NCBI GenBank assembly: GCA_964482725.1
Contig: CAYZYT010000015.1
Location: 1-54,775, forward strand
DNA length: 54,775 bases
From: an uncultured bacterium
GTDB taxonomy: Bacteria > Omnitrophota > Omnitrophia > Omnitrophales > Aquincolibacteriaceae
Direction of reading: 5' to 3'
Position 1 is the first letter of the stretch, and every line of letters starts with the position of its first letter. A program made the position numbers and the translations under genes. Shown here one piece after another: positions 26,342 to 50,338 of the stretch. Below the pieces are notes generated by a model that had not been told where the DNA came from, made no database searches, and saw nothing but the letters and a program-made list of their open reading frames with translations.

Positions 26342-27199
26342 ATGAATAAGGAAATCATCGTAAGGCTTAATCAGACGTTCGAAGGGTCCGCGTTCACGCA
26401 CGAGGGGCTGGAATACTGGATGGCGCGGGATTTGCAAAGGCTGTTGGATTATACGGAGTGGCGTAATTTCTTGTTAGTGATCGATAAGGCCAAGACCGCT
26501 TGCGTGAACTCGGGGCAGAATATTCGAGACCATTTTGTTGACGTCAACAAAATGGTTTCTTTGGGATCGGGCAGTGAGCGTGAAGTTGATGACATGATGC
26601 TGACCCGTTATGCCTGTTATCTGATCGCGCAAAACGGCGATCCGCGCAAAGAACAGATTGCTTTCGCACAAAGCTATTTTGCCATTCAGACGCGCAAGCA
26701 GGAATTGCTTGAGCAAAGAATCGCCCTTACCGAGCGGGTCCTTGCCCGGCAGAAGCTTGCGGGAACCGAATTGGAGCTCTCGGGCATTGTTTATGAAAGA
26801 GGCGTGGACGGACAGGGATTCGCCCGGTTAAGAAGCAAGGGGGACCACACGCTTTTCGGCGGTAAGACCACGCTGGAGATGAAGAACAAGCTCGGTATTC
26901 CCGAAAAAAGAGCGCTGGCGGATTTTCTGCCGACGATCACGATCAAAGCGAAGGATCTTGCCGCTGAGATCACGAGTTTTAATACCAAGAAGAATAATCT
27001 CCGCGGAGAAGCGCCGATCACAGCTGAGCATGTGAAGAATAACAGGGATGTGCGGCAGCTTCTTGGGAAAAGCGGGATCAAGCCCGAAGAGCTTTTTCCT
27101 GAGGAAGATATCAAAAAGTTGGAATGCAGGCTTCGGTCCGAGAATAAGAAATTGTTAAAAGGGACGGCCGGCAAAAAAAACAGTAAGAGCCTCTCATGA
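26342..27199 (+). CDS. dinD: DNA damage-inducible protein D (Bro-N domain) family
   Basis: EYWMARDLQ.LL.Y..WRNF, LTRYACYLIAQNGDPRK, AQSYFAIQTRKQE. Confidence 0.88.
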   Translation: MNKEIIVRLNQTFEGSAFTHEGLEYWMARDLQRLLDYTEWRNFLLVIDKAKTACVNSGQNIRDHFVDVNKMVSLGSGSEREVDDMMLTRYACYLIAQNGDPRKEQIAFAQSYFAIQTRKQELLEQRIALTERVLARQKLAGTELELSGIVYERGVDGQGFARLRSKGDHTLFGGKTTLEMKNKLGIPEKRALADFLPTITIKAKDLAAEITSFNTKKNNLRGEAPITAEHVKNNRDVRQLLGKSGIKPEELFPEEDIKKLECRLRSENKKLLKGTAGKKNSKSLS

Positions 27200-28323
27200 A
27201 ATCCAAAAAATTCGGATTTAAGTTCATCGCGAAGGATAAGAAATGCGAGGCGCGGGTCGGGAAGGTGACGACGGCGCACGGGAGTTTTGAGACGCCGGTC
27301 TTCATGCCGGTGGGGACTCAAGGAACAGTTAAAGCCGTGCTGCCGCGCGATCTCAAGGAATCCGGCTCCGAGATCATTCTTTCGAATGCCTATCATCTTT
27401 ATATACGCCCCGGCCTCGAGGTGATCCAGAAACTCAAAGGGCTCCATAAATTCATGGCCTGGGACCGGCCGATCCTGACCGACAGCGGCGGCTATCAGGT
27501 GTTTTCCTTAAGCAAGCTGCGGAGCATCACAGAAGAAGGCGTGAAGTTCAATTCCTACTTTGACGGGCGGGAGATATTCCTCACGCCGGAAAAGGTGATG
27601 GAGATCCAGCAGGTGCTCGGGAGCGATATTGCGATGATCTTTGATGAATGTCCGGCCGCCAGCAAAGATAAACCCTCGATCGAAAAGGCCGTTAATATAA
27701 CCCTGCGTTGGTCGGCAAGAGCCAAGAAATGTCACAAGTTAAAAACGCAGGCGCTCTTTGGCATCATTCAGGGTGGGACGTTCAAGGATCTTCGCAGGGA
27801 ATCACTTGAACGAACCGTCGAGATCGGCTTTGACGGCTACGCGCTCGGAGGTCTCAGCGTGGGGGAACCCAAGCCCGAAATGCTTGAGGCCCTGACGGAT
27901 ATCCTGCCGAGAATGCCCGCGGACAAGCCGCGTTATCTGATGGGGGTCGGCACTCCGATCGATTTCTTTGAAGCGGTGGAACGCGGTGCCGATATGTTCG
28001 ATTGCGTGAACCCGACGCGCTATGGGCGGAACGGGACAGCGTTCACAAGCGACGGACTGGTGGTCCTGCGGAATACTCGATATAAGGAAGACGCCAAGCC
28101 GATCCAACGGGATTGCACTTGTTATGCCTGCAAGAACTTCTCGAGAGCGTACCTCAGGCATTTGGTGAATAGCCATGAGATCCTGGCCGCTGAATTGATT
28201 ACCTTGCATAATATCCATTTTTTCGTAAACTTAGTGAAGTCGATGCGGGAAAAGATACGGAAAAGCCAGTTCCTGCAGTTCAAAAAGCAATTTTTAAACC
28301 GTTTTGATCCACACACGAGATAG
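27196..28323 (+). CDS. tgt: tRNA guanosine(34) transglycosylase
   Basis: TPVFMPVGT, LTDSGGYQVFSL, YLMGVG, DMFDCV, CTCYAC. Confidence 0.97.
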   Translation: MKSKKFGFKFIAKDKKCEARVGKVTTAHGSFETPVFMPVGTQGTVKAVLPRDLKESGSEIILSNAYHLYIRPGLEVIQKLKGLHKFMAWDRPILTDSGGYQVFSLSKLRSITEEGVKFNSYFDGREIFLTPEKVMEIQQVLGSDIAMIFDECPAASKDKPSIEKAVNITLRWSARAKKCHKLKTQALFGIIQGGTFKDLRRESLERTVEIGFDGYALGGLSVGEPKPEMLEALTDILPRMPADKPRYLMGVGTPIDFFEAVERGADMFDCVNPTRYGRNGTAFTSDGLVVLRNTRYKEDAKPIQRDCTCYACKNFSRAYLRHLVNSHEILAAELITLHNIHFFVNLVKSMREKIRKSQFLQFKKQFLNRFDPHTR

Positions 28324-28402
28324 GGTATAGGGTATAGCGGATAGGGGATAGAAAAGTACAAGCCCTTAAGACTAAACCCTAACCCCTATCCCCTAAACGC
28401 TA
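28321..28402. repeat. Inverted TAGGG heptamer element (empty), tgt/yajC
   Basis: TAGGGTA TAGGGTA TAGCGGA TAGGGGA TAG ... CTAAACC CTAACCC CTATCCC CTAAACG CTA; first TAG is the tgt stop. Confidence 0.9.
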
Positions 28403-28415
28403 AAGAGGTTTTATC

Positions 28416-28730
28416 ATGTTCGAATCGATCGCGTACGCCGCCGAAGCCGTTGAAGGAGCCGCCCCCCAGGTCAATCCGTTAGTTCAGTTCATGCCCATTA
28501 TCCTTATGTTCGTGATCTTTTATTTTCTGCTTATCCGGCCCCAGCAGAAAAAGGCCAAGGATCTTCAGGCGATGATTGCCGGTATTAAAAAAGGGGACAA
28601 AGTGGTCACCACGGGCGGCATTCTCGGAGTGGTTTCGAGTCTTCAGGACGATTATGTGGTTCTTGCGGTCGGGGGTTCAGACACCAAAATCGAAGTGCTA
28701 AAGAGCGCGATCGCGGGACTTAGACAATAG
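28416..28730 (+). CDS. yajC: Preprotein translocase subunit YajC
   Basis: IFYFLLIRPQQKK, KKGDKVVTTGGILG. Confidence 0.95.
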   Translation: MFESIAYAAEAVEGAAPQVNPLVQFMPIILMFVIFYFLLIRPQQKKAKDLQAMIAGIKKGDKVVTTGGILGVVSSLQDDYVVLAVGGSDTKIEVLKSAIAGLRQ

Positions 28731-29121
28731 GGTTTAGGGGGTAGGGTATAGTGAAAGCCAGATCCTTTAAAGATCTGATCGTTTGGCAAAAGTCTTACAG
28801 TCTAGTTCTCGAAATATACAGGCTTACGGATCTTTTTCCGAAACATGAAATATATGGTTTGGCCCAGCAAATAAGAAGAGTCGCTGTTTCCATCCCGTCC
28901 AATATTGCCGAAGGGTACGGGCGTCAATACAATAAAGAGTATCGCCAGTTTTTATCGATAGCCTATGGTTCGTTGTGCGAATTAGAAACCCAGTATCTTT
29001 TGAGCGTAGACCTAAACTATATTGAGCGAAGCAGCGTGATTGAAGGTTTGATGAAGGAAGTCGGGGCAATGCTCTACCGGATCATCAATCCTAAACCCTA
29101 ACCCCTATACCCTAAACGCTA
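28728..29121 (+). mobile_element. Filled TAGGG heptamer cassette: left arm + four-helix-bundle gene + right arm
   Basis: TAGGGTT TAGGGGG TAGGGTA TAGTG (yajC stop to GTG start) ... CTAAACC CTAACCC CTATACC CTAAACG CTA (contains the ORF stop); interrupts the usual yajC-secD adjacency; mobility is inferred. Confidence 0.7.
28751..29101 (+). CDS. Four helix bundle protein (23S rRNA IVP / Avd-like family)
   Basis: FKDLIVWQKS, FPKHEIYGLAQQIRR..VSIPSNIAEG, FLSIAYGSL.ELETQ; visibly more AT-rich than its neighbours. Confidence 0.93.
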   Translation: MKARSFKDLIVWQKSYSLVLEIYRLTDLFPKHEIYGLAQQIRRVAVSIPSNIAEGYGRQYNKEYRQFLSIAYGSLCELETQYLLSVDLNYIERSSVIEGLMKEVGAMLYRIINPKP

Positions 29122-29136
29122 GAAAGGTTTTTAAAA

Positions 29137-31311
29137 ATGGACAAACATTATAAGTGGAAAGTCATGCTGATCATCGGGCTCGTCGCCTTTTCTCTCTGGA
29201 AGGTTTATCCTCCGAGTCAAACGATCAATCTCGGGCTTGATCTTCAGGGCGGCGTCCAGTTGCTCCTTCAGGTCGATATGGACAAGGTCCCCGAAGAGGC
29301 GCGTAAAGACGTGACCGCGCGTGTGGCCGAGATCATCCGTAACCGTATTGATGAATTCGGCGTCAAGGAGCCGGAGATCACGACCCAGGGCAAGAACCAG
29401 GTCGTTGTGAAGTTGCCGGGCGTGACAGACCGCGAACGTGCCAAGGAGATCGCCGGCAAGGCCGCTCATTTGGAGTTCAAGATCGTGTCGGAAGATGTGG
29501 ATCTGATCCAGAAGGCAGACGCCGGGACGATCCCTCCTGGATTCGAATATAAGAAAGTTAAAGGAAGTCCGAACGAGGAAATGGTGTTGCTTGCTTTGCT
29601 GCCGGTGCTGACCGGAGAGCATTTGACGACCGCTTCCGTGGGTTTCGACCAGTACGGTTCGGCGATCGTTCAGCTGACGCTCGATCGTGAGGGTGGGAAG
29701 ACCTTTGATAAAGTGACGTTCCAGAATATCGGCAAGCGTCTCGCCATTGTGATGGACGGCCAGGTCTATTCTGCGCCGGTCATCCGTGACAGGATCCCGA
29801 ACGGCAAGGCCCAGATCTCCGGGAATTTCAAGGCTGACGAAGCTGCCGATCTTGCGCTCGTGCTTCGCGCCGGTGCACTTCCTGCGCCTGTGACGGTTGT
29901 GGAAGAAAGAACGATCGGTCCGAGTCTCGGCAAAGATTCTATCGACAGCGGCATCCGCGCCAGTCTTTACGGGGTGCTTTTTGTCGTCCTGTTCATGCCG
30001 ATCTACTATCTTTTCTGCGGATGGGTCGCAAATCTTGGGCTTGTCGTCTATATGATCCTTGTCGCCGGAGCCATGGCGGCTTTCGGATCGACCTTGACCC
30101 TCCCCGGTATCGCGGGTTTCATTTTGTCCGTCGGGATGGCGGTGGATGCCAACGTTCTGATCTTTGAAAGAATGCGCGAAGAAATGGGGACGGGGAAGAC
30201 CGCGCGCGCTGTGGTTTCTGCCGGGTATCACCGTGCTTTTTCGGCCATTTTAGATTCGAACGTCACGACCTTGATCACCTCCGCCCTGCTTTTTATTTTC
30301 GGGACCGGGCCGATCCAGGGTTTTGCCGTAACACTCTCCATCGGTATTATCGCGAGCATGTTCTCTTCGATCTTTGTGACGCGTGTTATTTTTGACTATA
30401 TCGTCAAAAAGAATCCGAACAAGGTTTTCAAGATGCTCCAGCTTTTTAAGAATCCGAACATCGCGTTTTTGAAGAGCCGTCGTTGGGCCTACGGATTTTC
30501 CGTGATCTGTCTCGGGCTCGGGATCTTTGCCCTTACGGCGCGCGGGGCGAAGAATTATGGCGTGGAATTCACCGGGGGGACGCTTGTCCAAGTGGAGTTC
30601 AAGAAGGGGCTGGATCAGGCGAAATTCCGCTCTGAACTTGAGAAACAGGGTCTCAAGTCCCTGACACTTCAGCATTTTGGAGACACCAAGAGTCATCAAT
30701 ATATCGTGAAAATGGCCGAAGGCAATCCGTCGAAAGTGGGGGCGGCTGCGGAGGCGACCGCAGGAAAAGATGCCTACTCGATCCTGAAGGTGGACCAGGT
30801 GGGACCTTCGGTGAGCGGCAGCCTCAGGGATAAGGCGTTTTGGGCCATCGTTTGGTCATGGCTTGGGATCCTGATCTATTTGGGGTGGCGATTTCATTGG
30901 AAATATTCAGCAGCAGCCGTCGTGGCCCTTGTTCATGACACGGTGTTCGCTTTTGGTGTGTATGCCCTTAGCGGACGCGAAATCAACCTCGCAACGATCG
31001 CGGCGATTATGACGATCATCGGTTTTTCCGTGAACGATACGATCGTGACATTTGACCGGATCCGGGACAATGTGAAGCTGATGCGCAAGACGCCTTTTGC
31101 GGACATCGTGAACCTGAGCGTCAACCAAACATTGAGCCGCACTGTTTTGACGTCCATGACCGTGCTATTTGGGACACTGGCGCTTTTTTTCTTCGGGGGA
31201 AGCGCGATCGCAGATTTCGCATTCATCTTGATCATCGGCTTCCTGATTGGGACGTATTCCTCCGTCTTCGTGGCGTCGGCGTTGGTGGTGGATTGGAAAG
31301 CCCATAAATAA
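29137..31311 (+). CDS. secDF: Fused protein translocase subunit SecDF
   Basis: LGLDLQGG, GMAVDANVLIFER, GVEFTGG, GFSVNDTIVTFDRIR. Confidence 0.95.
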   Translation: MDKHYKWKVMLIIGLVAFSLWKVYPPSQTINLGLDLQGGVQLLLQVDMDKVPEEARKDVTARVAEIIRNRIDEFGVKEPEITTQGKNQVVVKLPGVTDRERAKEIAGKAAHLEFKIVSEDVDLIQKADAGTIPPGFEYKKVKGSPNEEMVLLALLPVLTGEHLTTASVGFDQYGSAIVQLTLDREGGKTFDKVTFQNIGKRLAIVMDGQVYSAPVIRDRIPNGKAQISGNFKADEAADLALVLRAGALPAPVTVVEERTIGPSLGKDSIDSGIRASLYGVLFVVLFMPIYYLFCGWVANLGLVVYMILVAGAMAAFGSTLTLPGIAGFILSVGMAVDANVLIFERMREEMGTGKTARAVVSAGYHRAFSAILDSNVTTLITSALLFIFGTGPIQGFAVTLSIGIIASMFSSIFVTRVIFDYIVKKNPNKVFKMLQLFKNPNIAFLKSRRWAYGFSVICLGLGIFALTARGAKNYGVEFTGGTLVQVEFKKGLDQAKFRSELEKQGLKSLTLQHFGDTKSHQYIVKMAEGNPSKVGAAAEATAGKDAYSILKVDQVGPSVSGSLRDKAFWAIVWSWLGILIYLGWRFHWKYSAAAVVALVHDTVFAFGVYALSGREINLATIAAIMTIIGFSVNDTIVTFDRIRDNVKLMRKTPFADIVNLSVNQTLSRTVLTSMTVLFGTLALFFFGGSAIADFAFILIIGFLIGTYSSVFVASALVVDWKAHK

Positions 31312-31391
31312 TAGGGGATAGCGTATAGAATATAGGGAATAGAAAAAGCCTTTCAATTTCTTTCCCTATACGCTAAACCCTAAACCCTATG
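31312..31391. repeat. Inverted TAGGG heptamer element (empty), secDF/recJ
   Basis: TAGGGGA TAGCGTA TAGAATA TAGGGAA TAG ... CTATACG CTAAACC CTAAACC CTATG; last unit contains the recJ ATG. Confidence 0.9.
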
Positions 31392-35266: not shown

Positions 35267-36346
35267 ATGCGTAAAATAATTGTTTTTCCGGGAGACGGGA
35301 TCGGCCCCGAAGTGACCGCGCAAGCGATGCGGGTTCTTGATAAGGTCGGGAAAATCTCGAATTTTAAATTTGAAACAGAAGAACTTCTGGCCGGCGGCGC
35401 GTCGATTGATAAATACGGTATTCCTCTGACGCCCGAGGCGCTTCTCGCGGCGCAAAAGGCGGACGCGGTATTTTTAGGAGCGGTAGGCGGACCGAAATGG
35501 GACAGCCTTCCGTCGGATAAAAGACCGGAAAAAGGATTGCTGGGTCTGCGTAAAGGGCTCAATGCTTTTGCGAATCTCCGTCCCGTGAAAATGTTCCCGC
35601 AGCTTGAACAGCGCTCTCCCCTCAAGCAGGAGATCGTGAAGGGGCTTGATTTTCTTATCCTTCGTGAGCTTGTGAGCGGGGTTTATTTCGGGACGCCGCG
35701 CGGGATCGAAAAACTTCCAAATGGCGAAGAGCGCGGGTTCAATACCATGGCTTACACGACTTCCGAGATCACAAGGATTGCGAAAATGGCTTTCGAGCTG
35801 TCCCGTAAGCGCCGGAAGAAAGTTACTTCGGTGGATAAGGCGAATGTGCTCGAGGTCAGCCAGCTTTGGCGCAAGGTTGTGATTGACGTCGCAAAAGACT
35901 ATCCGGATGTCGAACTCAATCACCGGTATGTGGATGATTGCGCGATGCAACTGATTCGCGATCCCAAGCAATTCGATGTGATCGTTACAAGTAATCTGTT
36001 CGGGGATATTTTAAGCGATGAATCCGCGATGCTCACCGGTTCGATCGGGATGCTCCCCTCCGCCTCGGTCGGGGATAAAGTAGCGATGTACGAACCCGTG
36101 CACGGTTCGGCGCCTGACATCGCGGGAAAAGATGTGGGGAATCCGTTAGCGACCATTCTTTCGGTCGCGATGATGCTCGAATATAGTTTTCATCAGCCGG
36201 ACGCAGCGCGCGCCATCGAACAAGCGGTCGGGAAAACACTGGCGGACGGTTATCGCACGGCGGACATTTATTCTGAAGGTACGACCAAAGTCGGTTGTTC
36301 GAAAATGGGCGATCTGGTGGTTCAAAATCTAGGCGATAGGGGATAG
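35267..36346 (+). CDS. leuB: 3-isopropylmalate dehydrogenase
   Basis: [37 protein letters not shown]. Confidence 0.96.
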
Positions 36347-36396
36347 CGTGAAGGGTTTAGTTTTTCTATACCCTAACCCCTATACCCTAAACGCTA
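36330..36396. repeat. Inverted TAGGG heptamer element (empty), leuB/asd
   Basis: TAGGCGA TAGGGGA TAGCGTG AAGGGTT TAG ... CTATACC CTAACCC CTATACC CTAAACG CTA; third TAG is the leuB stop. Confidence 0.9.
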
Positions 36397-36412: not shown

Positions 36413-37417
36413 ATGAAAAAATTAAAAGTTGCGATTTTAGGTGTCACCGGTGCAGTGGGTCAGGAACTTTTAGCCATTCTTGAAGAACGGAAGTTCCCGT
36501 TTGCCGAACTCAAGATGCTGGCCTCCGGTCGTTCCGCCGGGAAGAAGATGCAGTTTATGGGGAAGACGTACAATATCGAAGAAGCAACCCCGGACTCTTT
36601 TAAGGGGATCGATCTTGTGCTGGCGAGTGCCGGAGGTTCGATCTCTAAAGCGCTTGCGCCGTATGCCGTGAAGGCCGGGGCGCTTGTGGTGGATAACACC
36701 AGCGCATTCCGCATGGACCCGGAAGTGCCGCTTGTGATCCCCGAGATCAATCCTGAAGATATTGCGAAGCACAAAGGGATCATCGCGAATCCGAACTGTT
36801 CCACCATCATTGCGTTGGTTCCTCTTTGGCCGATCCATAAAGTGGCGAAGATCAAGCGTTTTGTCGCGGCGACCTATCAGGCCGCGAGCGGCGCCGGCGC
36901 GAAGGCGATGGAAGAGCTCAAGATCCAGGCCCAGGACTTTCTGGCCGGCCGGCCCGTCAAAAAAGAGGTTCTGCCGCATCAGATCGCGTTCAACGTGTTT
37001 TCACACAACTCCAAGATCGGGCCGGACGGCTATAACGAGGAAGAGACCAAGATGGTGAAAGAGACCAGGAAGATCTTCCACGACCCGGATATCCGGATCT
37101 CTGCGACCTGCGTGCGCGTGCCGGTCCTTCGGGCGCACTCCGAAGCGCTCAATATAGAGACCGAAAGACCGATCACGGTGGAGGAAGCGCGGGCCCTTCT
37201 CGCGAAGGCCCCGGGCGTGAAGATCGTCGATGACCGCGAAAAGAATTATTTTCCGATGCCTCTCGAAACGACGGGGCAGGATGATATTTTTGTCGGCCGT
37301 CTGCGTATCGATCCGTCTGTGACGAACGGCCTCGCGATGTTCGTCTCAGGCGACCAGATCCGCAAAGGCGCCGCGACGAATGCTATCCAGATCGCTGAAT
37401 TAGCGTTTAGGGAATAG
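36413..37417 (+). CDS. asd: Aspartate-semialdehyde dehydrogenase
   Basis: GVTGAVG, IIANPNCST, TCVRVPV..HSE, KGAATNAIQIAE. Confidence 0.96.
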   Translation: MKKLKVAILGVTGAVGQELLAILEERKFPFAELKMLASGRSAGKKMQFMGKTYNIEEATPDSFKGIDLVLASAGGSISKALAPYAVKAGALVVDNTSAFRMDPEVPLVIPEINPEDIAKHKGIIANPNCSTIIALVPLWPIHKVAKIKRFVAATYQAASGAGAKAMEELKIQAQDFLAGRPVKKEVLPHQIAFNVFSHNSKIGPDGYNEEETKMVKETRKIFHDPDIRISATCVRVPVLRAHSEALNIETERPITVEEARALLAKAPGVKIVDDREKNYFPMPLETTGQDDIFVGRLRIDPSVTNGLAMFVSGDQIRKGAATNAIQIAELAFRE

Positions 37418-37480
37418 GGTATAGGGGATAGAGGGCAATAAAAGATTTTCTATACCCTAAACCCTATACGCTATACCCTA
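37401..37480. repeat. Inverted TAGGG heptamer element (empty), asd/truA
   Basis: TAGCGTT TAGGGAA TAGGGTA TAGGGGA TAG ... CTATACC CTAAACC CTATACG CTATACC CTA; third TAG is the asd stop. Confidence 0.9.
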
Positions 37481-37484
37481 TTGT

Positions 37485-38228
37485 ATGCGTAATATCAAAC
37501 TCGTTCTCGAATACAACGGCTCGATGTTCTTCGGGTTCCAAAAACAACCCGGTCATCCCACCATCCAGGAAGTTCTTGAAAAGGCCCTCTCCGGATTTTT
37601 TAACCGCAAGATGAAGATCGCTGCCGCGAGTGGCCGCACGGATACCGGTGTTCATGCCGAAGGCCAAGTCGTCAATTTCAAGACCTCAAGCGTTCACGAG
37701 CTTGGAAAAATCCAAAAAGGTCTGAACGCGCTTTTGCCGCCGCCGGTCGTTGTAAAAGAAATAGAGGAAGTGGCAGCCGATTTTCATGCCCGCTATAGCG
37801 TTCGCTCCAAGGTCTACGAATACCGGATCTGGAATCACTCCTGCCGTTCTCCGCTTATCGCCGGTCGCGCATTCCATGTTCCTTATGCTTTGAATGTTTC
37901 GAAGATGCGGTATGCCGCCAAGGCTTTCATAGGAAAAAACGATTTCCGTTCATTCACTTCCGTATCGGCCCTGAAAAAAGGAGCCTCCTGTGTCCGGACG
38001 ATCAAGCGCTTTCAGATCAAAAAACAAGGGCATCTCATCCTCATACGCGTCGAGGCGAATGGATTCCTTTACCACATGATCCGGAACATGGTTGGAACGC
38101 TTCTCGAGGTGGGGAGAGGGAAGCGGGCGGCCGAGGAGATAGCCGCTATTTTAAAGGCCCGAGACCGGCGCTATGCCGGCGCAACAGCCCCATCCGAAGG
38201 CCTTACACTGATTAAGGTTACGTACTGA
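37485..38228 (+). CDS. truA: tRNA pseudouridine(38-40) synthase
   Basis: SGRTDTGVHA, FHARYS, GFLYHMIRNMVG. Confidence 0.96.
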   Translation: MRNIKLVLEYNGSMFFGFQKQPGHPTIQEVLEKALSGFFNRKMKIAAASGRTDTGVHAEGQVVNFKTSSVHELGKIQKGLNALLPPPVVVKEIEEVAADFHARYSVRSKVYEYRIWNHSCRSPLIAGRAFHVPYALNVSKMRYAAKAFIGKNDFRSFTSVSALKKGASCVRTIKRFQIKKQGHLILIRVEANGFLYHMIRNMVGTLLEVGRGKRAAEEIAAILKARDRRYAGATAPSEGLTLIKVTY

Positions 38229-42304: not shown

Positions 42305-43030
42305 TTATTTCCTGCCAAATTCCTTCCGCAATCGCCGGACCAAAGCCCTGGCTGCCAGGACCTCGGATTCCCGCTTGATCTTATGAATTGCCGAGGCTTT
42401 TCGTTTGCCTCCGGCCGAAACCGTGGTTTTTACACCCTTTTCCGAGAAGGCGTGTGTGTACTCCGGGAGCTTTTGCCATTTTTTTAAGGTCATTTCCTGA
42501 AGCGTGCTTTTGGGGTTCGGGTCGAGCCGGAAAAGAAGCTTGGGGTCAAAATATCTTTTGAAATGTTTCAGGATGAACGCTTCGACCTTGGTGTGGCCCT
42601 GATCAAAGTAGATCGCCGCAAAAAGCGCCTCAAGCGCGTCGGTAAGCAACTTGGCCTTGAGGAAGTCTTTAAAATTCTGGCGCATATTTTTGCTGATCAG
42701 GAGGATGCGATGGAGTTTCATGCCCTGGGCGATGCGACTGAGGATCTTTTGAGAGACGAGGATCGAACGGAGTTTCGAGAGCATGCCTTCATCGGCTTCC
42801 GGGAATTTCTCGAATAATTTCTGACAAATGACTTCGTTTAAAATGGAATCTCCGAGGAATTCCAGCCGGTCAAAATCTTCGAGTCCCTTCGTGATGCGGA
42901 AGTTCTCATTGCGAAACGAGGGGTGTGTCAGCGCGGCGCGATAGACCGGGAGGGATTTGACCTGGAAACCAAGGACTTTGCGCAGGGAAGTCTTGATGTG
43001 AGGATCTTTGGGGGATATTTTCTTTCGCAT
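42305..43030 (-). CDS. rnc: Ribonuclease III
   Basis: ALTHPS, DRLEFLGDSIL, DALEALFAAIYFD, dsRBD NPKSTLQE. Confidence 0.92.
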   Translation of the reverse strand: MRKKISPKDPHIKTSLRKVLGFQVKSLPVYRAALTHPSFRNENFRITKGLEDFDRLEFLGDSILNEVICQKLFEKFPEADEGMLSKLRSILVSQKILSRIAQGMKLHRILLISKNMRQNFKDFLKAKLLTDALEALFAAIYFDQGHTKVEAFILKHFKRYFDPKLLFRLDPNPKSTLQEMTLKKWQKLPEYTHAFSEKGVKTTVSAGGKRKASAIHKIKRESEVLAARALVRRLRKEFGRK

Positions 43031-45668: not shown

Positions 45669-45737
45669 TAGGGTATAGGGTGTAGGGTATAGAAACAAGA
45701 ATTTTTCTAAACCCTATCCGCTAAACCCTAAACGCTA
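45669..45737. repeat. Inverted TAGGG heptamer element (empty), argJ/argB
   Basis: TAGGGTA TAGGGTG TAGGGTA TAG ... CTAAACC CTATCCG CTAAACC CTAAACG CTA. Confidence 0.9.
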
Positions 45738-45742
45738 AAAAG

Positions 45743-46597
45743 ATGAAAGAATATATCGCAAAAGCGCAGGCCCTGATCGAGGCGCTTCCTTACATCCAGA
45801 AGTTTCGCGGAAAAGAAGTCTTGATCAAATATGGCGGCGCGGCTCTGACCTATCAGGAAGTTCGCGACATGGTGCTTCAGGATCTTGTCTTCATGAGTTA
45901 TGTGGGGATCCGGCCGATCCTGATCCACGGGGGCGGCAAATTTATCACCGATGCCATGAAGAAAAAAGGCGTGCAAAGCCAGTTCGTGAACGGTCTCCGC
46001 GTGACGGACAAAGCAACGATTGAAGTCGTGAACGAAACGCTTGCGGACCTGAACCGGAGCATTGTCCATGACATTGAACGTCTCGGAGGTTCCGCGGTCG
46101 GGCTTTCCGGCTATGACGCCGAGATCCTGAACGTCGTGAAGCATACCGAGAACGGCGACGTGGGTTTTGTCGGCGATGTTTCTTCCGTCAACACGGTGCT
46201 CCTCAAGGAACTCACGGAATTCGGAAGGATCCCCGTGATCTTTCCGGTGGGCAAGGGACCGGATGGTGAAATGTATAACGTGAATGCGGACGAAGCCGCG
46301 GCCAATATCGCGGCAGCCATGCATGTGCCGAAGTTTATGGTGCTGACGAATGTCAAAGGCATTCTCCGTGATCCGGCCCATGAAGAGACGCTCATTCCTT
46401 CGCTTCGCGTGAGCGAGACGCAACAACTGATCGACCAGAAGATCATTACCGGGGGCATGATCCCCAAGGTTAAGGCTTGCATCGACGCGCTTCAGGGCGG
46501 TGTTCAGAAAGCCCACATCATTGACGGCCGCATCACGCACGCCCTTTTGCTCGAAATTTTTACGGACCAAGGGATCGGGACGGAAATTACACTCTAG
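45743..46597 (+). CDS. argB: Acetylglutamate kinase
   Basis: EALPYIQKF, KYGG, HGGG, NVNAD, GGMIPKV. Confidence 0.96.
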   Translation: MKEYIAKAQALIEALPYIQKFRGKEVLIKYGGAALTYQEVRDMVLQDLVFMSYVGIRPILIHGGGKFITDAMKKKGVQSQFVNGLRVTDKATIEVVNETLADLNRSIVHDIERLGGSAVGLSGYDAEILNVVKHTENGDVGFVGDVSSVNTVLLKELTEFGRIPVIFPVGKGPDGEMYNVNADEAAANIAAAMHVPKFMVLTNVKGILRDPAHEETLIPSLRVSETQQLIDQKIITGGMIPKVKACIDALQGGVQKAHIIDGRITHALLLEIFTDQGIGTEITL

Positions 46598-46672
46598 GGA
46601 ATAGGGTTCAGGGGATAGGGTATAGAAAAGCAAAAGAATTTCTAAACCCTAAACGCTATACCCTATACGCTA
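46595..46672. repeat. Inverted TAGGG heptamer element (empty), argB/argD
   Basis: TAGGGAA TAGGGTT CAGGGGA TAGGGTA TAG ... CTAAACC CTAAACG CTATACC CTATACG CTA; first TAG is the argB stop. Confidence 0.9.
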
Positions 46673-46678
46673 AAAAAT

Positions 46679-47890
46679 ATGAAAACAGCCGACGTTCAAA
46701 AATTATACGAACAATACGTGATGCCGACCTACACCCGGCTGCCGGTGTGCCTGGTCAAAGGGAAAGGCTCGCGTGTCTGGGACCTCGAGGGAAAAGTGTA
46801 CCTCGATTTTTTCCCAGGCTGGGCGGTTTCCGGCATCGGGCATTGTCATCCCATCGTGGTGAATGCGATCAAGGAACAGTCGCGGAAAATGCTCCACATC
46901 GCGAACAATTTCCTGAATGTGAAGCAGGCCGAGCTTGCAAAGACTCTTTCCGAAGCCTCGTTTCCCGCGAGGATCTTCTTCTGCAACAGCGGCGCCGAGG
47001 CGAACGAAGGCGCTATCAAATTCGCCAAGAAATATGGGAGTGAAACCGGACGTTTCGAGATCATCACCATGAAAAATTCTTTTCATGGGAGGACGCTCGC
47101 GGCGATGACTGCGACGGGACAGGAAAAATTCCATAAGGGATTCGAACCGCTCTTGGAAAAATTCCGCCATGCGGAGTTTAATGATCTGGAGTCGGTTAAA
47201 AAGCTTGTGACCGATAAAACGATTGCGATCATGCTGGAGCCGATCCAGGGAGAGGGAGGGGTCTCCGTGGCGAGCCGGGATTTCCTAGAAGGGCTCCGGA
47301 AGCTCTGCGATGAAAAAGATATGCTTCTGATCCTAGATGAAGTACAGACCGGCATGGGACGCACGGGGAAAATGTTCGCGTATCAGCATTATTCTCTGGA
47401 ACCGGATATTATGACGCTGGCCAAGACCTTGGGCGGGGGAGTTCCGATCGGAGCTTTTGTTGTGAGCCGGAAGATCAAGCGTGAAGTGCTCACCGCCGGG
47501 ATGCACGGGTCGACCTTTGGCGGAAACCCGCTTGTGTGCGCGGCGAGTCTTGCGGTCTTTAAGGCGATCAAAAAGGAAAAGCTGCTCACGAACACGATCC
47601 GGATGGGAGAGCTTCTCGAGCAGGAGTTTGAGAAGCTGAAAGCCAAATATCCCGTGATCGAAAGCACCCGGGGAGTGGGACTGATGCGGGGCCTGAAGCT
47701 CAAGGAACCGTCTGCGCCCTATGCGGATGAAGCGCGCGCGCAGGGGTTTCTTATCAATGCGACGCAGGGCGATATCCTGAGGATCATGCCGCCCATGACG
47801 GTTTCGGTCAAAGAGATCAAGCTTGGCATGAAGATCCTGGACAATGTTTTTGCCAAGGTCACGGCACAGGCCGCGAAGGCGACTTTATAA
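46679..47890 (+). CDS. argD: Acetylornithine aminotransferase
   Basis: NSGAEANE, SFHGRT, EPIQGEGG, DEVQTG, LAKTLGGG. Confidence 0.94.
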   Translation: MKTADVQKLYEQYVMPTYTRLPVCLVKGKGSRVWDLEGKVYLDFFPGWAVSGIGHCHPIVVNAIKEQSRKMLHIANNFLNVKQAELAKTLSEASFPARIFFCNSGAEANEGAIKFAKKYGSETGRFEIITMKNSFHGRTLAAMTATGQEKFHKGFEPLLEKFRHAEFNDLESVKKLVTDKTIAIMLEPIQGEGGVSVASRDFLEGLRKLCDEKDMLLILDEVQTGMGRTGKMFAYQHYSLEPDIMTLAKTLGGGVPIGAFVVSRKIKREVLTAGMHGSTFGGNPLVCAASLAVFKAIKKEKLLTNTIRMGELLEQEFEKLKAKYPVIESTRGVGLMRGLKLKEPSAPYADEARAQGFLINATQGDILRIMPPMTVSVKEIKLGMKILDNVFAKVTAQAAKATL

Positions 47891-49088: not shown

Positions 49089-50273
49089 ATGAAAAAGGTT
49101 GTTCTTGCGTACTCCGGGGGTCTCGATACCTCCTGCGCGGTGAAATGGCTCGGGGAGAACCACGGGTTGGATGTGATCTGTTTTTGCGCGTTTATCGGCG
49201 AGGTGAAAGACAAGGCGCCGCTCATCAAGCGGGCCGAGGCCGCGGGCGCGATCAAGACCTTTATCGTGGATCTTAAAGAAGAATTCGCGAAAGATTACAT
49301 TATGCCGGCGCTTTGGGCGCACGCGCGTTACGAAGGCAAGTACCCGCTTGCGACAGCGCTTGGCCGTCCGCTCATTGCGAAACATCTTGTGGCCGTCGCT
49401 CAAAAAGAAGGCGCAGAATTTGTGGCGCATGGCTGTACGGGGAAGGGGAACGATCAGGTGCGGCTTGAGGTGGGTGTGAGGACCCTCGATCCGGACCTCA
49501 AGATCATCGCGCCGCTTCGCGACTGGGAATTCAAAACGCGCGAAGAAGAGATCGAGTATGCCCTGGAACGGAAGATCCCGATCGACGTGACAAAGAAAAG
49601 CCCTTATTCCATCGATAAGAACATTTGGGGCATTGCGATCGAAGCGGGGATCCTGGAAGATCCCATGGTCGAGCCGCCGGAAGACGCCTATGTCATGACA
49701 TGCTCTCCGGGCAAGGCGCCGAAGAAGCCGTGTTATATCGAGATCTCTTTTGAGAAAGGCGTGCCGGTGAAATTGAACGGCACCCGGATGCCGCTGGTCG
49801 AGTTGATCGAAAAGTTGAACACGATCGCAGGCAAGTACGGCGTCGGACGCTTCGACATGATCGAGAACCGGCTTGTGGGGATCAAAAGCCGCGAGGTTTA
49901 TGAAGCCCCCGCCGCCGATGTGCTCCTCAAAGCGCATGAAGAGCTCGAAGGGTTCGTGATGGACCGGGAATTTCTCCATTATAAGAGACTGCTGACCGAG
50001 AAATATGCGGAGCTTGTGTATTTCGGGCTCTGGTTCTCACCGCTCAAAAGATCGCTGGATGCTTTTTTTGCGGCAAACCAAAATCGCGTGACGGGAAAGG
50101 TCCGGTTCAAACTGGACCGGGGTCACGCGATCTGCGTCGGCCGTGAATCCAAATATGCTCTTTATAAAGAAAAACTCGCCACGTATTCCAAGGGCGATCT
50201 GTTTGACCGGAAGGCTGCAACCGGATTCATGAAGATCTGGGGACTTCCGTACGAGGGAATGTATAAATCATAG
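49089..50273 (+). CDS. argG: Argininosuccinate synthase
   Basis: VLAYSGGLDTS, HGCTGKGNDQVR, GIKSREVYE. Confidence 0.97.
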   Translation: MKKVVLAYSGGLDTSCAVKWLGENHGLDVICFCAFIGEVKDKAPLIKRAEAAGAIKTFIVDLKEEFAKDYIMPALWAHARYEGKYPLATALGRPLIAKHLVAVAQKEGAEFVAHGCTGKGNDQVRLEVGVRTLDPDLKIIAPLRDWEFKTREEEIEYALERKIPIDVTKKSPYSIDKNIWGIAIEAGILEDPMVEPPEDAYVMTCSPGKAPKKPCYIEISFEKGVPVKLNGTRMPLVELIEKLNTIAGKYGVGRFDMIENRLVGIKSREVYEAPAADVLLKAHEELEGFVMDREFLHYKRLLTEKYAELVYFGLWFSPLKRSLDAFFAANQNRVTGKVRFKLDRGHAICVGRESKYALYKEKLATYSKGDLFDRKAATGFMKIWGLPYEGMYKS

Positions 50274-50338
50274 GGTATAGTGAGTAGGGTATAGCGGTTA
50301 GAAAAAACTATGCCCTATCCCCTAAACCCTAAACGCTA
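50271..50338. repeat. Inverted TAGGG heptamer element (empty), argG/argH
   Basis: TAGGGTA TAGTGAG TAGGGTA TAGCGGT TAG ... CTATGCC CTATCCC CTAAACC CTAAACG CTA; first TAG is the argG stop. Confidence 0.9.

Follow-up and report, generated by a model that had tools for sequence, protein, structure and literature searches.

The closest described counterparts of the element reported here are the intervening sequences (IVSs) of bacterial 23S rRNA genes. In the excerpts of the Coxiella burnetii study drawn on here (PMC4990558), an IVS with an open reading frame (ORF) lies in helix 45, and further ORF-bearing IVSs are cited for Leptospira, Brucella and Xanthomonas. The Coxiella IVS is 428 nt long, has a 28-bp terminal stem, is excised by RNase III and contains an S23p ORF, the start of which is preceded by three tandem heptamers; strains differ in how many of these they have. 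The same excerpts treat the IVS as a selfish, horizontally acquired element with a decaying and probably untranslated ORF (PMC4990558). Here we describe an insert of similar build in a 54,775-nt stretch of DNA from an uncultured Omnitrophota bacterium (contig CAYZYT010000015.1; hereafter the window). A gene for a 23S-rRNA-intervening-sequence family four-helix-bundle protein (IVP) and the heptamer arrays on its two sides, together called the cassette, stand there between the genes yajC and secDF of a protein-coding operon.

Elements of the miniature inverted-repeat transposable element (MITE) or repetitive extragenic palindrome (REP) type are short palindromes that occupy gene junctions in many copies, are present in some genomes and absent from others, and derive from a longer, gene-bearing parent copy. 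With at least 590 relatives in a scan of one genome per species, the IVP/S23p family is a very large one, and it has a solved structure and no known function. Likewise unexplained in the consulted parts of two papers are the intergenic heptamer repeats of bacteria, described as GGGAATC in Xanthomonas and GGGGA(C/T)T in Nostoc (PMC4692102) and as TAACTGA in Beggiatoaceae, cyanobacteria and Bacteroidetes (PMC4679880). In the literature searched, which left most subscription journals outside its coverage, no description of such a cassette outside rRNA was found. What the present locus adds is a series of alleles within one genus, which dates the insert, reveals its decay and copying, and indicates that the type of repeat unit rather than pairing between the arms is conserved.

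The genes tgt, yajC, IVP and secDF follow one another on the plus strand (Table 1). IVP matches PF05635 with 128.5 bits (cut-off 33.8) over model positions 1-105 of 106, TIGR02436 ('four helix bundle protein') with 122.5 bits (cut-off 24) and NF008911 with 137.7 bits (cut-off 137). These matches bear out a sequence-only reading of the window, which had proposed a four-helix-bundle gene wedged between yajC and secDF. The nearest solved structure is 2GSC (XCC0516 of Xanthomonas campestris; E 3e-23, residues 5-104), which is pentameric according to the excerpted Coxiella study citing Lin 2006 (PMC4990558). A role of IVP in anti-phage defence was rejected, as none of the PADLOC families matched the protein at E up to 0.01.

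Like the 23S rRNA IVS as excerpted, the cassette is an insert of about 0.4 kb with a PF05635/S23p ORF in its loop and terminal inverted repeats able to form a stem, and in both the heptamers before the ORF vary in number, between strains in Coxiella and between species here. Unlike the IVS, it lies in a protein-coding operon. Its arms are whole heptamer arrays that overlap the stop or start codons of three genes, whereas Coxiella has a near-perfect 28-bp stem, and its protein is under purifying selection, whereas the ORF of Coxiella is reported as decaying. Excision by RNase III, which may apply to the cassette too, has been shown for Coxiella, and ORF-less derivatives at other junctions, which we report below, are absent from the IVS description in those excerpts (PMC4990558). 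The heptamers of Xanthomonas, Nostoc and Beggiatoaceae resemble ours as intergenic tandem 7-nt units near the end of the upstream ORF that vary in length and sequence among close relatives, and some pairs in Xanthomonas could form inverted repeats. Those repeats are apparently linked to no gene, as far as the consulted text of the two papers goes, from which the words 'four helix', 'S23' and 'intervening' are absent (PMC4692102, PMC4679880); here, in contrast, the units build up both the arms that enclose a gene and those of the related ORF-less elements.

The boundaries of three genes are written into the two arms. The stop codon of yajC is the first unit of the left, G-rich arm, and the final TAG of this arm overlaps the GTG of IVP, the sole possible start before the Pfam match. 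At the other end, the last four codons of IVP with the stop (CCT AAA CCC TAA, 29090-29101) lie inside the right arm. All three arrangements had been noticed in the sequence-only reading, which also took a run of Gs upstream of the GTG for a possible Shine-Dalgarno sequence. The run, a putative Shine-Dalgarno site, is indeed there, 9-13 nt upstream; the orthologues have AGGAGG or AGAGGA at other spacings. Because the repeat has a period of 7, TAG falls in all three frames after three units, and the left arm combines TAG in every frame with Shine-Dalgarno-like G-runs. The arms are inverted repeats over 24 nt (79% complementary, with an 11-nt perfect core), and joined by a linker they fold at -33.2 kcal/mol. 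A degenerate 31-nt pattern of the right arm has 5 matches in the window versus 0 in 100 shuffles.

Directly after the right arm, in front of secDF, stands the module GAAAGGTTTT. In 5 of 18 close relatives the arm is followed by GGTTTT, compared with 2.4% of background windows, three of these five being one orthologous locus. Signal counts for a promoter or terminator belonging to the cassette were not above those of shuffled sequences in a scan limited to sigma-70-type sites. The operon direction of the insert, this result, the stops and start supplied by the arms and the module before secDF agree with the earlier proposal of a cassette that avoids disrupting an important operon.

To place the insert in time, 40 relatives' genomes were compared. 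The yajC locus is present in 19 genomes of the same genus, the window's own genome (G000) being counted among them and the others designated G001 and so on. The full cassette was found in three of the 19, namely G000, G017 (IVP 91% identical) and G004 (80%). G001 has a 205-nt derivative with the arms and the first bases of the ORF, and G014 a 30-nt spacer that retains the right end of the cassette. A repeat-free spacer of 29-36 nt separates yajC from secDF in seven genomes (G008, G019, G018, G011, G005, G010 and G013), which accords with the usual adjacency of these genes that the sequence-only reading had named as known. The gap is filled by a hairpin of about 88 nt in another three (built of TAAGCGN-type units in G016 and G012 and of a different palindrome in G002) and by other palindromic fillers of 139-209 nt in G003, G007, G006 and G009. 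In congeners without an insert, yajC ends in TAA.

The three full cassettes have a common left junction, the yajC stop, and their right ends, comprising the arm and the ribosome-binding site (RBS)-like module, differ at 1 base over about 40 nt; the number of units in the left arm differs among them. G017 and G004 retain the RBS-like module, as do the derivative in G001 and the scar in G014; the short alleles do not have it. Between G000 and G017 the synonymous divergence (dS) of the IVP gene is 0.69, versus 0.87-1.05 for the flanking genes, and between G000 and G004 it is saturated. The nonsynonymous divergence (dN) from the G017 orthologue is 0.049 (dN/dS about 0.07), which marks the protein as being under purifying selection. 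Because the dS of IVP is like that of its flanks and three congeners share the same junction and right end, the arrival of the cassette between yajC and secDF is dated to a time before these three species diverged. The sequence series further indicates that the cassette decays to ORF-less hairpins and scars: the G001 derivative retains the start of the ORF, so decay runs from cassette to hairpin.

The genus offers a natural series at single junctions, with full cassette, internal deletion, scar, ORF-less hairpin and empty site, and it also has two cassette lineages with different units. Such a series makes unit recognition by the protein, the action of the arms in RNA and the route of copying testable. 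As a side observation, the 'empty' 29-33-nt spacers of G019, G018, G011, G005 and G010 contain AAAGCCA and, after it, TCAA(C). AAAGCCA equals the first bases after the GTG of the cassette, and TCAA(C) the bases that end just ahead of its right arm. The likeness may be coincidental or may be a scar left by the loss of a whole cassette; the shared 7-mer alone is expected about 0.6 times by a rough estimate.

The sequence-only reading had found the ORF richer in AT than its flanks, and so it is. Its GC content is 42.5% and its GC content at third codon positions (GC3) 47.9%, versus 52.7+-2.7% and 61.1+-5.5% in 1163 background ORFs, among which it ranks at the 0.8th and 2nd percentiles. Low GC3 (0.41-0.52) recurs in 5 of 5 copies of this IVP lineage, with flanks at 0.55-0.69, and in all 6 PF05635 paralogues of the genome. 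Since all five copies of the lineage have kept low GC3, AT-richness is a lasting trait of the IVP gene and no sign of recency.

Relatives of IVP occur far beyond the genus. The best 80 of the at least 590 relatives include proteins 65-78% identical to IVP from Pirellulales, Phycisphaerales, Sedimentisphaerales, Atribacterota and other Omnitrophota; yajC identity within the window's own order is 43-64%. Judged by eye, both arms are present at at least 35 of the 40 displayed loci from other phyla. By arm count, 33 of 76 loci exceeded the 95th percentile of a cross-locus control in which flanks of different loci were paired, a control that is itself raised by shared unit families. Among the relatives listed, the closest are accompanied by TAGCGKA or TAGGGKW units and more distant ones by other 7- or 8-mers. 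Further relatives, 41-60% identical, are found on 7 viral contigs and 35 plasmid records (mostly cyanobacterial). Six of the 7 copies on viral contigs have both arms and the seventh the upstream arm only; phage records gave no tblastn match to IVP at 1e-5. One viral-contig copy (L181) is the only one seen with the reversed polarity, with a C-rich array upstream and a G-rich one downstream, all others being G-rich at the 5' side.

Within the genus, a further copy in G017 (85-86% identical) precedes the gene orthologous to window gene 36413..37417 and thus stands at the junction where G000 has the hairpin at 36330-36396. The left arm of this copy is identical to that of the window cassette, and in the IVP tree it falls inside the G000/G017/G004 clade (support 99/97). 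An IVP copy at the same junction in G001 has KAGCGKA arms and groups with copies from Planctomycetales and another Omnitrophota member (91/94). Two lineages have thus settled at a single junction, and one of the lineages has given rise to a further copy in the same genome. Taken with the copies in other phyla and on viral contigs, the second G017 junction shows gene and arms to be a self-contained unit that recurs across phyla, as the sequence-only reading had supposed. Beside this second cassette, the 359-aa gene at 35267-36346 is 36% identical to its 359-aa counterpart in G017 (G017:C143, L118) and the next gene 83%; in other congeners the identity is 74-84% at the C-terminus of the 359-aa gene, which may thus have been replaced in G017.

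Presence/absence polymorphism and copies at new sites, as in transposons and MITEs, are seen. The cassette and its relatives share with MITE- and REP-type elements the multi-copy palindromes at junctions, their polymorphic presence and a longer parent with a gene; they differ in that the only gene of the parent is no known transposase or recombinase and that the arms are arrays of short units, not unique termini. Filled and empty alleles of the tgt|yajC junction are compatible with a target-site duplication of TA at both ends, but TA is also how the element itself begins and ends. At yajC|secDF the spacer is altogether different.

All 6 PF05635 genes of the genome (2.33 Mb, 24 contigs, 95% complete) have repeat arrays alongside, and the unit differs from copy to copy. 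Arms in opposed orientation are clear on both sides in 4 of the 6, the other two being incomplete or complex. The units of the paralogues are GTGTCAAA / CTTTGACA, GAGACNG / CNGTCTC and CGTTCCC (seen downstream only), with AT-rich units at a fourth copy and long complex direct repeats at a fifth. Two of these copies deserve separate mention. The one at C2:203244-203546 lies within direct repeats of about 100 nt on both sides, which are not simple heptamer arms. The one at C4:102058-102369, together with its relatives, forms a subfamily with a long N-terminal extension (open frames of 160-228 aa), for which the downstream heptamer array was the only one seen; behind it come a short hairpin and a further stretch, both conserved.

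ORF-less hairpins with the TAGGGKW unit of the window cassette number 12 in the genome (66-95 nt), 7 of them in the window (Table 1). Counting the cassette, 8 of the 13 two-armed TAGGGKW elements of the genome fall in the window, which is 2.4% of the genome (binomial P 1e-10). All 8 fill gaps between co-directional genes. In 6 of the 8 the upstream stop codon is an arm TAG and in 1 more it stands directly before the arm; downstream starts follow 0-16 nt past the arm, often without a Shine-Dalgarno-like sequence. Folding energies of the hairpins range from -18 to -34 kcal/mol (z -1.7 to -9.1, 100 shuffles each), and in every unit 1-2 unpaired bases interrupt the stem, which is thus made of 5-6-pair runs. 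A direct repeat of 41 nt with 93% identity links the tgt|yajC hairpin (28372-28412) to the cassette (29091-29131). It spans both right arms and 10 nt beyond, including the RBS-like AGGTTTT; since it runs beyond the heptamers, the copied unit extends past them. An Rfam scan of the window returned one tRNA and nothing else. At 37480-37487, 45737-45745, 46672-46681 and 31387-31391, start codons lie 0-6 nt past the last heptamer without a Shine-Dalgarno-like sequence, and these starts would be inside or against the stem, if the stem forms.

Table 1. Coordinates of the cassette, its operon neighbours and the ORF-less hairpins in the window.
Feature	Position	Strand	Remarks
tgt	27196..28323	+	upstream of yajC
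ORF-less hairpin tgt|yajC	28321..28402	+	its first TAG serves as the stop of tgt; folds at -28.2 kcal/mol (z -5.6)
yajC	28416..28730	+	PF02699 5.8e-30; TIGR00739; stop TAG 28728-28730 is the first left-arm unit
Left (G-rich) arm	28728..28751	+	3.5 tandem heptamers TAGGGKW: TAGGGTT TAGGGGG TAGGGTA TAG
IVP gene	28751..29101	+	116 aa, GTG start; 23S-rRNA-intervening-sequence family four-helix-bundle protein
Right (C-rich) arm	29087/29091..29121	+	4.5-5 heptamers WMCCCTA, reverse-complement type
RBS-like module GAAAGGTTTTTAAAA	29122..29136	+	between right arm and secDF start
secDF (fused)	29137..31311	+	NF009583 804.8 bits
ORF-less hairpin secDF|recJ	31312..31389	+	recJ ATG overlaps its last unit
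ORF-less hairpin	36330..36396	+	orthologous junction has full IVP cassettes in G017 and G001
ORF-less hairpin	37401..37480	+	stop of upstream gene is its third TAG; next gene starts 4 nt on
RNase III gene	42305..43030	-	PF14622 93.1 bits at 42560-42940; context only
ORF-less hairpin	45669..45737	+	orthologous in G017, G004, G012, G016; absent in G014, G019
ORF-less hairpin	46595..46672	+	
ORF-less hairpin	50271..50338	+	

At the eight window junctions, up to seven congeners have hairpins of some unit family or are empty at 6-30 nt. Fillers within a genome are more alike across junctions (5-mer cosine 0.389, n=117) than fillers of the same junction across genomes (0.289, n=109), and in 0 of 2000 permutations of genome labels within junctions was the observed likeness reached. 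The repeat type follows the genome, not the site. A two-unit heptamer pattern has 55, 48 and 13 matches in the three genomes with this IVP lineage versus 0-11 in the other 17 (one-sided rank test 0.003, kin not being independent), and 9 of the 20 genomes have no match at all. Right arms are near-identical in three neighbouring elements and in orthologues, and left arms are variable. What is conserved is thus the unit sequence and not exact pairing, as would be expected if the units were either read by some factor or written by some process. A G-quadruplex formed by the G-rich arm was also considered and dropped: four G-runs occur only in some arms, and the other unit families have none.

We regard the cassette, with some reserve, as probably an IVS-like selfish element whose home is an mRNA operon and not, as usual, a gene for rRNA. 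It would be transcribed by read-through together with the operon, and its arms would render the insert harmless. TAG in three frames would terminate yajC, the G-rich left arm and the GTG would start translation of IVP, the right arm would end it, and the RBS-like module behind that arm would serve secDF. In the transcript the arms may pair (about -33 kcal/mol) and bring the yajC stop beside the secDF start, which could preserve translational coupling or, as happens with the IVSs of rRNA, present a site for RNase III, whose gene is found in the window. Because it is the repeat unit and not arm-to-arm pairing that is conserved, the heptamer units are probably read by IVP or by some other factor. 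The locus further shows that an essential operon, tgt-yajC-secDF, is able to carry such an insert in the long term, with the repeats of the insert serving as gene boundaries.

A wider claim, which we think doubtful, is that each IVP recognises its own heptamer arrays in a sequence-specific manner and that gene and arrays together constitute a new, transposase-free mobile element. IVP would bind the units on single-stranded DNA or on RNA hairpins and would drive the copying or homogenisation of hairpins into gene junctions. The arms would have a second function as transferable signals for stop, start and coupling, which would make insertion harmless both in operons and in rRNA helices. If true, this view would explain together the bacterial heptamer repeats and the IVP family, for which an explanation has been wanting since the first descriptions of rRNA IVS ORFs (1990s papers cited in the excerpts of PMC4990558).

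Several observations weigh against the selfish-element explanation or against parts of it. The genomes that bear the cassette do not form one clade in the flanking-gene tree, and an approximately unbiased (AU) test gave p=0.041 for the three ORF-bearers and 0.003 when G001 and G014 were added; this tree rests on 372 aligned residues, has 4 of 20 inner branches well supported, and the AU groups were named after the tree had been seen. A single old insertion therefore needs several losses or an early exchange among congeners. In addition, the RBS region of the short alleles is different, so that these alleles are not simple deletions. One old insertion followed by deletions alone is hard to reconcile with this; congeners may have exchanged the cassette early, or it may have inserted more than once at a favoured junction. 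Hairpins also occur in genomes without this IVP lineage, with 7 pattern matches in G014 (96% complete), 11 in G012, 11 in G003 and 9 in G015. The cassette has no recombinase or transposase, IVP being its only ORF with a family match. Three metatranscriptome runs, in which 5-6% of the sampled words were present, gave short contigs on yajC and secDF, mostly those of relatives, and nothing on the cassette.

An element's own arms are 81% paired, versus 84% for arms taken from different elements (P=0.009), and in the arms of the three orthologues, read by eye and uncounted, no compensatory change was noticed. The sense strand folds weakly more stably than the antisense strand (27 versus 13 of 40, p=0.046, rows not independent), and in G000 the two are level at 4 versus 4. 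Support for a stem selected as such is accordingly the weaker in these sequence comparisons, and the idea of a stem maintained by compensatory change was dropped, since own arms pair slightly worse than foreign ones.

Among the other explanations, the one that the sequence-only reading had preferred is a recently acquired foreign cassette whose AT-richness marks horizontal transfer. It can point to the extreme GC and GC3 of the ORF among host ORFs (0.8th and 2nd percentiles), to a cassette in only 3 of 19 congeners and to close IVP relatives in other phyla, yet we hold it very unlikely. The dS of 0.69 against G017 approaches that of the flanks (0.87-1.05) and is saturated against G004, all three bearers have the junction and right end in common, decayed copies are left in G001 and G014, and low GC3 marks all 5 copies of the lineage and the 6 paralogues alike. 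The gene has thus long been at the site, while neither a host-like composition nor presence throughout the lineage (3 of 19) was found; the idea of a self-contained cassette that spares its operon is right in kind and wrong in timing. A different order of events would put the hairpins first, arising and spreading independently by slippage and gene conversion, with the gene as a passenger that moves between hairpins of matching units by recombination of the arms. Much in the genus agrees with it: ORF-less hairpins outnumber cassettes 12:1 for TAGGGKW in G000 and persist in genomes without this IVP lineage, different unit families occupy the same junctions in different congeners, the number of left-arm units varies, and the Xanthomonas, Nostoc and Beggiatoaceae repeats appear unlinked to genes in the consulted parts of their descriptions (PMC4692102, PMC4679880). 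We nevertheless think it unlikely, since the gene is accompanied by its type of unit from phylum to phylum, the genomes with this IVP lineage have the highest pattern counts, and the ORF start retained in G001 records decay from cassette to hairpin.

The hairpins might instead serve the host as intercistronic mRNA elements for stability, processing or coupling, with IVP as a beneficial trans-acting binder. The purifying selection on IVP speaks for this, and the placement of the hairpins exactly between co-directional genes, with a stop in or directly before the arm in 7 of 8 elements and a start 0-16 nt after it, suits such a function, as does the clustering of 8 of 13 elements in one housekeeping region. 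Their distribution is patchy, however, with the cassette in 3 of 19 congeners and no pattern in 9 of 20 genomes; close relatives do without any filler at these junctions and show no ill effect of it, and the family is spread over phyla, plasmids and viral contigs. We consider service to the host distinctly unlikely on these grounds. Scarcely credible is the remaining possibility, that IVP is the accessory protein Avd of a diversity-generating retroelement. The two proteins share a homologous four-helix-bundle fold, and a resemblance of PF05635 to Avd is remarked in the consulted part of PMC10053308 (PDB 2GSC and 4DWL). IVP also gives weak Avd matches (NF033474 28.7 bits, PF22296 20.8 bits, phrog_3206 3.2e-08). 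The first two scores, however, stay below the curated cut-offs of 80 and 40 bits, the 95% complete genome has no match to reverse transcriptase (PF00078), and there is no template or variable repeat nearby. The retroelement reading was therefore rejected, on the sub-cut-off scores and the genome without PF00078.

A relationship to REPINs and their REP-associated tyrosine transposases (RAYTs) was likewise rejected, because the two Y1_Tnp genes of the genome are flanked by GGGACGGTTCTC palindromes and not by heptamers. These Y1-transposase (RAYT/IS200-like) genes lie at C4:13524-13832 and C17:13061-13384 of G000, and one of them has an internal TAG. Both are flanked by GGGACGGTTCTC / GAGAACCGTCCC palindromes, of which a solo copy stands near C1:308370. 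These palindromes make up a second palindromic element family of the genome, unrelated to the heptamers.

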